From contig OZ001293.3 in assembly GCA_963921275.4 (NCBI GenBank), forward strand, positions 5,632,001 through 5,696,000: a stretch of 64,000 nt of DNA, written 5' to 3'. The DNA comes from an uncultured Hormoscilla sp. GTDB taxonomy: Bacteria; Cyanobacteriota; Cyanobacteriia; Cyanobacteriales; Desertifilaceae. The notes below the pieces were generated by a model that made no database searches, was not told where the DNA came from, and worked only from the letters and a program-made list of their open reading frames with translations. The position numbers and the translations under genes were made by a program. Each line of letters begins with the position of its first letter. The stretch's first letter is position 1. Of the stretch, positions 43,243-62,019 are shown one piece after another.

Positions 43243-44077
43243 GTGCGATTCGTTCTAGTCTAACGTGGGCAACTACGGAACGCTAGGCCAGGTCCAAACT
43301 GGTAACTCTGGTATTCATGGGGGTTAGATTCCCTCTCTCCAAGTGTGGGAGTAACACCGGTCCTTAGTGCTGCTGAGTCACATCACGGTGGTGCGGAGCA
43401 AGGACTTAAATGTAGGATAGCTAGCAGCCTAAGCTAGTGACGCCGCTAGGAAAGATGCTAATGGCTAGAACAAGCGAACCTGTGTACGCCTCGTTATCTA
43501 GAACCAGCGAAATAAGGCTTAAAGCGCTGGCCCAAAAGGGAAATGGTAGTTTGTGCTGGTTCTTGCACTTGGCCAGTATCGCACTCTAAGAACTCCCGGG
43601 GTATAGCAGGGGCCTAAAAGCATCGTGAAATGATACTAGGGAACGAAGTAACTTCTCGTGTGCTGTCTAGATTGGACAAGTTAGATGTAAAGCGCAAGCC
43701 GCGAGGGGAGAGATAGCCCGAGAAGCTAATGCCTAGGGTAACGCCTATGGATATGATGGGGTGTTCCTCATCCAGCTGACGCGGGTTGGTTAAAGTAGGA
43801 AATCTTGGGTAAGAGTATCTCTAAGACGCCGGAGGCCTCTCGAAGGTTGGATGACTGGTAAAACAGACTTGGAAATGGTAATACTAAAGGTTATCTGGCA
43901 GCGCCGCTTACCAACCAGGAAAGGAGTGAAATCGCATGAGATGAGGGACAAGTGGAGCAATTTGTAGTAATCCTAGTAGTGACAATGCCCTACTTGCCAG
44001 TAGCCGGATGCGGTGAAAGTCGCACGTCCGGTTCCGAATGGGAGAGTTAGGGGGTGACCCCTAGCTCGACCCCGACT
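43243..44077 (+). ncRNA. ORF-less group II intron 3 (about 835 nt)
   Basis: 5' GTGCGATTCGTT, canonical domain V AGCCGGATGCGGTGAAAGTCGCACGTCCGGTT, domain VI ending CTCGACCCCGAC(T). No ORF. Homologous to 60867-61793. Confidence 0.9.
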
Positions 44078-44735
44078 AGTATAACAGAGCGCATGAGATT
44101 GGCGCGCTCAGGCAAGGCTCGTGCAAAGCTCGTAGCGTAACACGCTCACGCTGCGAGCGCTTATAGTTAGCAGCCAGGGCTAGCCATCCACTGCTTTTTT
44201 CTAGCTTAGTGGACTTGCCTCACAAAAAGCAAGTAATATACCGGATTTGCCGCTCTCAAGTAAGACGAGCGCCTGCTATGGCAATAATACGGAACGAGGG
44301 AGATGATGAGAGATTACTGCCAAATCCCCCGCTCGTACTGAGGATTACCCCAAATATTGGAGATGTGTAAGTTTTTGGGCAACAAGAGCGCAACTCCAGA
44401 TAAGTAGGATGCGTATTTTGCCAGAAGACGAGATCGCCTCTGGACTGGGATGGTGCCCACCAGTGACCAGGACCAGGCCCACCAGTGACAACTAACAACT
44501 GACAACTGATAACTTGACAAAGAGCAGGAGAGATGAGTTATTATATACAGATTAACCTAGCCCGAACGATAGTGGTCGATTTTGAGTGGGAAAACTAGAG
44601 GACAGGCTGGTCGCTATACTGGGTCGGGCCTAGCTCGGGGCGGTATAAATCTGGGTTGGTATCTACACGCACATGGCTACAGGGCGAGGTCATACAAGTT
44701 GCGCCTGCGCGATCGGAGAGTTGGAGTTAAAGCTA

Positions 44736-45407
44736 ATGGATGCTCCTGTTCCAGGTCCAAGAGTAATTACCAGAACTAGCTTGGCTCGCCAGCTGCGAAG
44801 CTTACAGGGGGACGTATTACGCATGGGATCCCTGGTAGAAAAGTCCTGCTGGCTGGCCCGTAAAGCTATATACGATTGGGATTTGGCAGCGGCCAAAGAG
44901 ATCGCGGTGCAAGATAAACAGATCGATCGATTTTACCGACAAATTGAACTAAACTGCGTCAGCACGATGGCACTCCAGGCACCGGTGACCCAAGACTTGC
45001 GGTTAATCAGTGCTCTGATGCAGCTAGTACGAGACCTGGAGCGAATAGGTGATTATGCTAAGGATTTAGGCGAAATCGCGTTTAAACTGTTTGCTTATCC
45101 GCCTCATGAGTGCATGGGAAAAATTCAGGTGATGTTAGACAGAACTCAAGCTATGCTGGCAATGAGTTTAAGGGCCCTGTCGGACTTGGATGCCCAGGCG
45201 GGTCTAGAAGTTAAGGTGAAAGATGATCAGGTAGATTCAGACTACCTGATCATCTATAACGAACTGGCCAATCAAAAGGATCTTCAGGGGGTGGTGGAAC
45301 AGACTATGCTACTGGTGTTAGTCATCCGTCACTTGGAACGCATGGCAGACCATGCTACTAATATTGGACAACGAGTGGCTTACATTGTCACAGGTCAGCG
45401 CTATTGA
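44736..45407 (+). CDS. phoU: Phosphate signalling protein PhoU
   Basis: ALQAPVTQDLR, DLERIGDYA, LERMADHATNI. Confidence 0.95.
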   Translation: MDAPVPGPRVITRTSLARQLRSLQGDVLRMGSLVEKSCWLARKAIYDWDLAAAKEIAVQDKQIDRFYRQIELNCVSTMALQAPVTQDLRLISALMQLVRDLERIGDYAKDLGEIAFKLFAYPPHECMGKIQVMLDRTQAMLAMSLRALSDLDAQAGLEVKVKDDQVDSDYLIIYNELANQKDLQGVVEQTMLLVLVIRHLERMADHATNIGQRVAYIVTGQRY

Positions 45408-45754
45408 CCTCTTGGTTGTCCTGTTCCCTATAGGTGTGAATTGACATCGATACCAACTGGACTAGGTGGGAAAAACAGCAAAGGGTTTTGCCATGCTGGA
45501 CATCGGTGCCGCCCCGCATTGTATCATCAATGTCTCCTGTGTGCCGTCCATGTCCCCTGGGACAAGAGCAAGGAGCAGAGATATCGAATCATCGACTTTC
45601 AAAAGATGGTGACACACAACCTACGGAAGTGGCCATGATGTCTGGAGACGTGATGATCTGGCGATATCACTTGACACAGGGTGAGATCCTATCGTCTCAC
45701 CCCTGTCAAGTGATATGGGATTGACAATTGTTCAAGGAGAGGAATCATCGCTAC

Positions 45755-60536: not shown

Positions 60537-60547
60537 GAGGAGTGAAG

Positions 60548-60721
60548 ATGAATAATTACCCTTGCTGCTCTGATACAATGTTACGTCACATTCGCCATCA
60601 CGAAATCTATTGGTATTGTCCTTCCTGTAGGCAGGAAATGCCAAATTTCACAACATTGATTAGTAAGTCAAGCTTGTTAAGCAACATCGAGCTTGAGAAA
60701 AAACAGTCAACCATGGTATAA
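60548..60721 (+). CDS. Small Cys-rich (zinc-ribbon-like) protein, 57 aa
   Basis: AGGAGGAG RBS. Hand translation MNNYPCCSDTMLRHIRHHEIYWYCPSCRQEMP... Confidence 0.7.
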   Translation: MNNYPCCSDTMLRHIRHHEIYWYCPSCRQEMPNFTTLISKSSLLSNIELEKKQSTMV

Positions 60722-60795
60722 CTCTGGGATTTAAGTGCAAGTCCTGAACGGATTACGGATGACATTTGATGACAAAAAAACATTAACAAAATAAA

Positions 60796-62019
60796 ATGAC
60801 AAAGCAATCATTACCTGAGGAGAAGACTGAGAAAAATCTCTGCTGTTATGTGAATGGAAGGAGGCAGTGCGATTCGTTCCGACATAAGCCAGTAGGTGAA
60901 AGTCGGGTCTGGCTCTATCAGCCAGATAACTCTGGTTATCATGGGGGTTAAATTCCCTTTCCCCAGGTACGGGGGTCGAGGGTACTACCGGTCGGAGGTG
61001 CTACGGAGCCACATCGCCGTGGTGCCTCCCGAGGACTTAAATGTAGGATAACTGGCAGCCTAAGCCGGTGACGCCGCTAGGAAAGATGCTAATGGTTAGA
61101 ACAAGCGAACCTATGTAAACCTCGTTAACCAGAACCAGCGGAAGAAGGCTTATGCGCTTGCCCAAAAAGGGAAATGGTAGTTAGTATTAGCTCTTGCCTC
61201 TGGCTAATAACGTACTCAAAGAACTCCCGGGGTATAGTAGGAACCTAAAAGCATCGTGAAATGATACTAGGGAACGAAGTAACCTCTCGTGAGCTGTCCC
61301 CATTTGGACAAGTTAGATGTAAAGCGCAAGCCACGAAGAAGAAGGATGTCCTAAGAAGCTAACGCCCAGGGTAATGCCTGTGGATATGCAGACGTAGGAC
61401 GGATATGGTAAGACACCCTTGGGAAAAGTAACCTTAATGTCACAGAACTAGGGAGAAATTCCGAAAGTACGAATTTTGGATTCAAATCTTAGCCAGGTAA
61501 AGTTCAGAGCCCTTACGAAAAGCGGAAAGCAGAATGGGGAAGATGTTAGTAAAGAGCGGCGAGTATGGTTTGCTGAACTATCCTCCGCGAACCTTCCGCA
61601 GCTCAGTACTTAAACGGTCCAATAGGATTGACCATAAGGGGTAAAATTTCAAAGGGTAAGGGACAACGGGGGTAACCCCCAGTAATCCTACTGATGACAA
61701 CAGCTTACCAACCAGTAGCCGTGTGCGGTTCCAGTCGCTCTTCAGGTTTCGCTCTTGGAGGGTTGGGGAGTGATTCCCAGCTCGACCCCGACCATTGCTG
61801 GTGCTTCGGATCGCCAATATTCCCAATTGGTATTTTGAGCGAGTGGTTTTTCCCAAAGAGCGCTTATTGTTTGCAGCACCGCCAACAGCTAAGCTAGAAA
61901 TTCATCAGCACAACCATGATGGGACAACTCTATCAGATATTATTCCCTGCAAGTACTTGCGTGTTGATGAAGTCAGCCATAATAATAGAGCAATCGAGTT
62001 ATGCAGTTCTCCTGGTTAG
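60796..62019 (+). CDS. DUF1830-like protein interrupted by ORF-less group II intron 5; exons 60796-60866 and 61794-62019
   Basis: Spliced product ...NLCCYVNGRRQLLVLRIANIPNWYFERVVFPKERLLFAAPP... matches the family pattern. Confidence 0.85.
60867..61793 (+). ncRNA. ORF-less group II intron 5 (about 927 nt), domain V degenerate
   Basis: 5' GTGCGATTCGTT, long blocks shared with 43243-44077, 3' CTCGACCCCGACC. Confidence 0.9.

Follow-up and report, generated by a model that had tools for sequence, protein, structure and literature searches.

Dispersed group IIB introns without open reading frames in a Hormoscilla genome, and their likely use of reverse transcriptases from resident, distantly related introns

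The stretch of DNA analysed here (the window) comprises 64,000 nucleotides (nt) from an uncultured member of Hormoscilla, a genus of sponge symbionts (PMC6520454), and corresponds to contig C1:5632001-5696000 of genome G000; positions given below without the contig are those of the window. It contains two group IIB introns, A and B, neither of which has an open reading frame (ORF), and which probably splice and retrohome with a reverse transcriptase (RT) borrowed from resident, distantly related RT-encoding introns. The original prediction, made from the letters of this stretch without database searches, had described elements of 835 and 927 nt at 43243-44077 and 60867-61793, and these lengths, ends and positions all hold. 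The parts of the two elements, with their exon-binding sites (EBS) and the matching intron-binding sites (IBS) in the exons, are as follows.

43243..44077, + strand: element A, ORF-less group IIB intron with an IIB2-type 5' end, 835 nt; one of 72 copies at 98% identity or above
43231..43235, + strand: IBS2 of A, TAGAT, forming five pairs with EBS2
43237..43242, + strand: IBS1 of A, CGTGCA, forming 5 of 6 pairs with EBS1
43496..43501, + strand: EBS2 of A, AUCUAG
43564..43569, + strand: EBS1 of A, UGCACU, the same in all listed near-identical copies
43604, + strand: EBS3 of A, U, with exon +1 A as partner, by covariation
43711, + strand: gamma of A, an A paired to the terminal U
43757..44000, + strand: domain IV of A, about 244 nt, without RT remnant; limits approximate
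44001..44034, + strand: domain V of A, canonical, with AGC triad and GAAA loop
44035..44077, + strand: domain VI of A with the 3' end, which reads GACU; the bulged base is the A at 44069, nine bases from the terminus
60796..60866, + strand: 5' exon of a DUF1830 gene split in sense by B
60861..60866, + strand: IBS1 of B, GAGGCA, forming 6 of 6 pairs
60867..61793, + strand: element B, group IIB intron of 927 nt without an ORF; 13 copies, itself included, reach at least 98% identity and 16 at least 96%
61128..61133, + strand: EBS2 of B, ACCAGA; family target consensus CTGGT, with only three pairs at the window site
61195..61200, + strand: EBS1 of B, UGCCUC
61235, + strand: EBS3 of B, U, placed by its alignment with position 362 of A
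61344, + strand: gamma of B, a G paired to the terminal C
61390..61715, + strand: domain IV of B, about 326 nt, without RT remnant; limits approximate
61716..61749, + strand: domain V of B, of non-canonical form; the AGC triad is retained, GAAA is replaced by UCCA, the lower stem has the mismatches G.A and U.C, and the bulge is UCU
61750..61793, + strand: domain VI of B with the 3' end, which reads GACC; the bulged base is the A at 61785, nine bases from the terminus
61794..62019, + strand: 3' exon of the DUF1830 gene, covering positions 10-66 of Pfam PF08865

The 5' ends of both elements read GTGCGATTCG; they begin with GTGCGATTC, in agreement with the IIB2 5' consensus GUGCGAUUC, and the GTGCG at 43243 and 60867 fits the GUGYG boundary, its placement being fixed by empty alleles and by restoration of the reading frame. 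The 3' ends depart from the usual AY, A ending in ACU and B in ACC. A canonical AC end was tried and rejected: among intron-free alleles of A sites four join after ACT and none after AC, and at B it is the excision of 927 nt, not 926, that restores the DUF1830 frame and yields a gap-free match to three homologues. These are more distant homologues, used because the orthologue in genome G002 is itself altered at its 5' end and provides no clean empty allele. Other families of the lineage end in AAU or UCC, all with an A at -9. In plain minimum-free-energy folds, the folding procedure used here, domain VI of both elements forms a hairpin with an unpaired A, the candidate branch point, which lies nine bases from the end in the A/B lineage as against eight in the resident RT introns. 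An RT-bearing intron with the same nine-base end occurs in genome G007, which belongs to the same family but another genus, so this end is a trait of the lineage and not damage. The site of A lies within a dispersed intergenic repeat of about 240-320 nt (43196-43242 and 44078-44400); intron-free relatives of this repeat stand at C1:2397393 and 3584329 (88-89% identity), and three further A copies sit in relatives of the site.

The anatomy of both elements is complete, with all six domains. Over domains I to III they agree at 406 of 509 aligned positions (80%), their domains IV differ, and no ORF of at least 100 amino acids (aa) overlaps either, which bears out the claim that they share long blocks, diverge in domain IV and encode no RT. 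They were also said to form a lineage apart from the three RT-encoding introns of the window, which is supported: three resident RT introns compared are only 53-55% identical to A over domains I to III, and resident RT introns differ in the position of the bulged base.

The targeting of the elements can be read from the exons, in which sequence information is restricted to positions -15 to -9, -6 to -1 and +1. A sliding, best-of-six scoring of EBS pairing had a high control value (4.1-4.8), and fixed registers were used instead. In these, EBS1 pairs with the sites of its own family at 5.2 of 6 positions for A (58 sites) and 5.6 of 6 for B (13 sites), as against 2.4-4.2 of 6 with the sites of other families, in keeping with the loops TGCAC (43564) and TGCCTC (61195) picked out earlier. 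An unbiased scan of all alignment columns over 39 family representatives returned the EBS1, EBS2 and EBS3 columns as the best-covarying ones: exon positions -1, -3, -5, -11 and +1 covary best with A positions 322, 324, 326, 257 and 362, respectively, so the three sites are assigned without prior assumption. The covariation of column 257 with exon -11 likewise upholds ATCTA, formerly a candidate, as EBS2 of A (ATCTAG at 43496), and EBS3 at position 362 is Watson-Crick paired with exon +1 in 36 of the 39 families. Thus, the EBS1, EBS2 and EBS3 pairings with the exons that characterize IIB introns emerge from both covariation and fixed-register tests. The two sites in the window are weaker examples, with 5 of 6 pairs for IBS1 of A and only three for IBS2 of B. 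Members of one family share a fixed EBS and have loose targets; between families the EBS loops covary with the target sites, which shows, at the family level, retargeting through EBS change. At C1:361408-362242 one A copy interrupts another in antisense orientation, at the exact position that is complementary to its own EBS1 loop.

A further tertiary contact behaves in the same way. The gamma base pairs with the terminal base in 160 of the 164 elements that could be parsed (A/U in 109, G/C in 51, 4 off), out of a base of 320 elements from which 156 fell away (148 and 4 unparsed, 4 untrimmed); the largest family, unparsed in this count, shows G/C in a separate look. The covariation of gamma with the terminal base indicates a ribozyme under selection.

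Genome-wide, full-length copies at 98% identity or above number 72 for A and 13 for B, the latter rising to 16 at 96% or above. Most copies differ from the majority sequence of their family by 0-3 nt, the B copies being 98.6-100% identical along the 927 nt, and most copies of both have unrelated flanks; 57 of the 72 A copies and 15 of the 16 B copies lie outside other introns, and RT introns harbor 12 of the 72 A copies. Run over the genome, a custom domain V/VI profile gave 503 matches, 502 of them at 20 bits or above. Of these, 406 belong to the A/B lineage, 86 to that of the RT introns in the window and 10 to others; an RT lies upstream in 75 of the 86. For 320 of the 406 A/B-lineage matches a 5' end was found within 1,300 nt, while 30 are longer and 56 are without a 5' end. 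These 320 two-ended elements fall into 57 clusters at 97%, of which the largest have 138, 72 (A), 16 (B), 12 and 8 members, so the lineage has at least 57 clusters; 316 measured short elements amount to 277 kb, or 4.0% of the chromosome. The near-identical copies without an ORF, 72 of A and 13 of B, which are scattered over sites that match the EBS, and the covariation across the 57 clusters support the proposal of a non-autonomous, retargeted family, and the scale of about 400 copies goes beyond it, as does the mispaired domain V of B discussed below.

The four other genomes of the genus all contain the lineage, and wherever it was examined in them it lacks an ORF. Beyond the genus, a search for domain I in 36 relatives from other genera found no match other than a short generic motif, 400 genomes of the phylum gave short generic matches only (50-54 nt, in 5 of the 400), and viral contigs gave no match to one domain I motif. 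A collection-wide scan for domain V/VI returned at least 12 loci, all from Hormoscilla among the matches listed. Four B-family copies share a single site in an ISKra4-family transposase (C1:529246, 1180585, 3483535 and 4567748), three with the loop GUAAAA and one with UUCCA. Contig C3 of the assembly (31,420 nt) has 17.6% G+C, against 42-49% in the other contigs, and is probably foreign to the genome.

The window itself also holds two RT-encoding introns that are candidates of the helper type.

40211..42600, - strand: RT-encoding intron of the other lineage with a 590-aa ORF, candidate helper type; 5' end approximate
57045..59459, + strand: RT-encoding intron of the other lineage with a 598-aa RT/X/HNH protein bearing YADD, candidate helper type; start approximate

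The second of these splits a response-regulator/GGDEF gene (56559-60146, +) in sense, cutting its receiver domain at profile positions 63/68. The third RT intron of the window (21790-23610, -) has a split ORF of 408 and 183 aa and a mispaired upper stem in domain V; Rfam at its gathering score missed it, and this form of domain V is also present at C1:5154289 and near C1:2800392. At C1:1775429-1777189 (-) stands a single, highly divergent RT intron with a 600-aa frame that lacks YADD; it sits on a long branch and has its own type of 5' end and of domain V/VI.

No RT remnant was detected in domain IV of the 39 family representatives with a profile built from 78 RTs (best score -1.8 bits, against 2.5 for a shuffled control). 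Recent RT remnants at this place would have spoken for a loss of the ORF after insertion; given near-identical dispersed copies without such a remnant, independent ORF loss after insertion was rejected. Nor was an RT-bearing member of the A/B lineage found in the assembly, the search that had been suggested for one ending empty: 403 of the 406 lineage domain V matches have no RT upstream, and the other three overlap nested RT introns, at 1147330 with a separate RT-type domain V, at 6625910 with junctions inside the domain IV stem, and at 5241028 with the same pattern. At C1:1145513-1147413 and 6624093-6625993 RT introns are inserted in the 3' stem of domain IV of ORF-less introns of the A/B type, the reverse of the twintron arrangement of Thermosynechococcus elongatus (T. 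elongatus). Triple nestings occur at C1:1057198, 1151072, 3087391, 3654045 and 4451358 and neighbours, where RT introns that are near-identical but occupy different sites contain A in domain I and, in antisense, a copy of the largest ORF-less family at ORF position 1413; only one of nine copies of this RT is uninterrupted, and either the composite moved as a unit or both passengers homed repeatedly.

An obvious alternative is that a close RT-bearing parent drove the spread of A and B and was recently lost, is unassembled, or resides in a co-resident strain. The assembly is 96.7% complete, the known trans cases, as set out in PMC4424553, all involve close relatives, and an RT intron with A/B-like domain V/VI and the nine-base end does exist in G007 (locus L023), with a metagenome relative (L056). 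However, in a quick tree of 35 of the 78 RTs, the L023 and L056 RTs branch apart from six of the seven RTs sampled from the genome studied here, with a Shimodaira-Hasegawa-like approximate likelihood ratio (SH-aLRT) support of 100 each. The best full-length matches to the L023 RT in the four same-genus genomes are 53-58% identical, and wherever a domain V directly follows the RT in the fetched matches it is of the other lineage's type. L056 is itself only 52% identical to A over domains I to III, within the 52-58% of the four RT introns compared from outside the genome. The ORF-less state of the lineage in the sister genomes and the very recent movement to which identical copies point also tell against a lost parent, which we regard as unlikely. 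Two further metagenome loci, L120 and L078, are RT-bearing IIB2-type introns that start with GTGTG, apparently end in AUCC and have a G at gamma; their 5' halves give the best scores of any RT introns against the A/B profile (146-147 bits).

For the borrowing of a resident RT there are 122 RT-like loci in the genome, 17 of them with an ORF of at least 570 aa and YADD. Three features point to resident RTs as the putative helpers. First, homology links the start of domain IV of the ORF-less elements to the stretch that precedes the RT start codon. Second, an A is preferred at exon position -15, outside the EBS2 pairing, at a frequency of 0.67 in the A family, 0.71 in the largest family and 0.56 in the RT introns (n = 25); in T. 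elongatus, A-14/A-15 are selected when the intron TeI4c mobilises TeI3c (PMC2882425). Third, there is the nesting of A copies in RT introns.

Copies within genes provide an indication of splicing. In long ORFs, A is found 15 times in sense and never in antisense, while empty target-like sites divide 81:38 (binomial about 0.003, calculated by hand), suggesting that sense copies are tolerated. The A hosts checked were metH, a glutamate synthase and an ectB-like gene. Of the 94 long-ORF insertions, 20 hosts were scanned and 11 exon pieces compared with possible paralogues; none of these hosts was shown to be both essential and single-copy.

Element B poses a problem of its own in domain V. The expectation that standard annotation would miss these introns stands for B, for which Rfam gives no intron match even at E up to 1, and fails for A, whose domain V/VI is found by RF00029 at 47 bits (cut-off 40). 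Whereas A has the AGC triad, the two-nt bulge and the GNRA loop of a regular domain V, in B the triad is retained together with its pairs, as are the upper GCG/CGC stem and the C of the bulge, and the loop and two lower-stem pairs are missing. The B hairpin folds at -6.9 kcal/mol (z -0.9), which is no better than what shuffled sequences achieve; that of A reaches -16.6 kcal/mol (z -3.9). An assembly artefact was considered and rejected: short-read contigs match domain V of B with 0 differences at about 12 times the depth of the flanks (682 vs 55-60), although the best runs may be the assembly's own source. The variant is also not alone. Its UCCA loop occurs at 24 places, in this genome only, and mispaired variants are multi-copy in three sister species, with a UCC/UCC mismatch at 17, 32 and 38 places in sister genomes; the UCC/UCC elements are 68-83% identical to each other, and about half of 14 fetched loci span nearly the whole model, the rest being fragments or contig ends. 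In G004 a AGCCGACU variant of domain V occurs 19 times, and all 10 fetched examples are identical 925-nt ORF-less elements at 6 distinct sites; this variant may re-pair through a register shift. A comparison of domain V with the kappa/zeta positions found an altered kappa region in some variant families and an unaltered one in B.

The CUCUU 3' strand of the B hairpin is found at 51 places here and once each in two sister genomes, where it is fully paired with another 5' strand, so the hairpin looks recombinant. Such mixing of domain V halves across families (seen with the strand as CUCUUCA in the two sister genomes) would suit an alternative in which B inserted with a normal domain V that was later overwritten by gene conversion and is now dead; more broadly, duplication at the DNA level could have spread copies, as where B-family copies ride in the ISKra4 transposase and some A copies ride in RT introns. 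However, all 12 parsed full-variant B copies lie at different sites with 5-6 EBS1 pairs while remaining as close to identical as noted above, and one spreading recombinant master is simpler than 13 conversions to the same defect; unrelated flanks likewise speak against duplication for most copies. This alternative is therefore, in our estimate, very unlikely.

Alternatively, B-type elements could be catalytically crippled and receive an intact domain V in trans from another intron RNA, as parasites of both a protein and a ribozyme. The GAAA-type receptor and kappa-like motif in domain I of B are unchanged although its own GAAA loop is lost; the failure of the hairpin to fold better than shuffles and the multi-copy state of several mispaired variants would also fit. 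Against this, B retains the triad and its pairs, the upper stem and the bulge C, and the conservation of UCC/UCC across elements as divergent as those in the sister genomes suits a working alternative fold more than decay. No case is known to us in which reverse splicing into DNA draws on a domain V from another RNA, and we give this possibility a distinctly small chance.

Returning to the borrowing of a resident RT, the scheme we favor as probable would run as follows, all of its catalytic steps being ones that we infer. A copy would be transcribed either together with the gene that hosts it or through read-through; an RT/maturase resident in the genome would bind the conserved start of domain IV and help splicing; the excised RNA would reverse-splice into DNA selected by EBS1 to EBS3; and the same protein would copy the intron RNA into DNA. 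Mutations in the EBS loops would found new families. B most likely proceeds likewise, its looser domain V retaining the AGC triad and being stabilized in its shape by the protein and domain I. A bolder version, possible but in our view doubtful, is that of an old, genus-wide ribozyme lineage without any RT-bearing member, which hijacks RTs of introns diverged by about 45% and has begun to shed its own domain V, so that B would spread because the protein, or the domain V of another intron, completes its active site in trans. If true, such a lineage would be a living bacterial step towards the degenerate organellar or spliceosomal introns served by a common splicing machine.

Several points weigh against the favored scheme. 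The resident RT introns are just 53-55% identical to A over domains I to III, and the demonstrated trans case involves introns 85-100% identical (PMC2882425). The A-15 preference could reflect melting of RNA or DNA in place of a shared protein. The orientation bias of A finds little echo elsewhere: the largest family has 19 sense and 19 antisense copies against an expected 47:74, a weak excess, and B has 4:1 against 16:13, too few to tell. As the named A hosts all have paralogues, none of them proves that splicing is required. A depletion of copies from genes was looked for in two large families and is unsupported, the share in long ORFs being about 30% both as observed and as predicted by target-like sites. 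Finally, a mispaired domain V is expected to impair activity, and TeI4f, which has such defects, is reported as little mobile (PMC2882425).

Among known systems, the closest is that of T. elongatus, in which ORF-less TeI3 introns are paired with 'driver' TeI4 RTs and 17 of 28 introns are ORF-less, all being 85-100% identical (Mohr, Ghanem and Lambowitz 2010, PMC2882425). As in TeI3 (PMC2882425), the introns described here are cyanobacterial ORF-less IIB elements, organized in EBS-defined families with good EBS/IBS pairing, found nested in RT introns and in an insertion sequence and showing a preference for A at -15/-14. However, TeI3 belongs to IIB1 and has ORF remnants at one shared deletion (PMC2882425), where A and B have an IIB2-type 5' end and no detectable remnant; further, there are about 400 copies here, the nearest resident RT introns are 53-55% identical over domains I to III, and there are multi-copy families with mispaired domain V. 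Hence, of the features by which a TeI3-type system is known, ORF-less dispersed copies at EBS-matched sites are present, and A and B would work like TeI3 without two of the others, namely a close resident RT-bearing relative and ORF remnants in domain IV. Other cyanobacteria provide more partial likenesses. The introns of Trichodesmium erythraeum also sit in protein genes, 10 of the 17 shown to splice in vivo lack an ORF, and their IIB2 5' consensus GUGCGAUUC matches A and B, a likeness by description; they number tens and not hundreds of copies, and the account in PMC4649490, as far as it bears on this, describes no near-identical dispersed ORF-less families. Arthrospira platensis, whose 101 introns were the maximum among 1,790 bacterial genomes surveyed (PMC8919778), is likewise a filamentous cyanobacterium with an expanded load of CL-type introns; the 502 domain V/VI matches and 320 two-ended ORF-less elements found here were obtained by different methods, and the counts are not strictly comparable. 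No published description of the A/B lineage was found, the main text of two Hormoscilla genome papers containing neither 'reverse transcript' nor 'retro'. In being ORF-less, with a mispaired domain V and a presumable reliance on trans-acting proteins, B resembles the degenerate organellar introns, which are described as immobile and vertically inherited (PMC4424553); B, on the other hand, comes from a bacterium, in which 13 near-identical copies are dispersed. Bacterial group II introns without an ORF have been held to be rare, unless their domain V is unlike known ones, and dependent on close RT-bearing relatives (PMC4424553); with its unusual domain V, missed by Rfam, B fits the exception allowed there. 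The genome studied here has about 400 ORF-less introns without a close RT-bearing relative, at least one dispersed family of which is invisible to Rfam. It offers dozens of natural EBS/target pairs on a compact scaffold, and its naturally varied set of ribozymes, helper RTs and forms of domain V is one on which the multiplication of introns, the sharing of a splicing protein and the tolerance of core decay can be tested. These are the very steps that have been proposed for the origin of spliceosomal introns.

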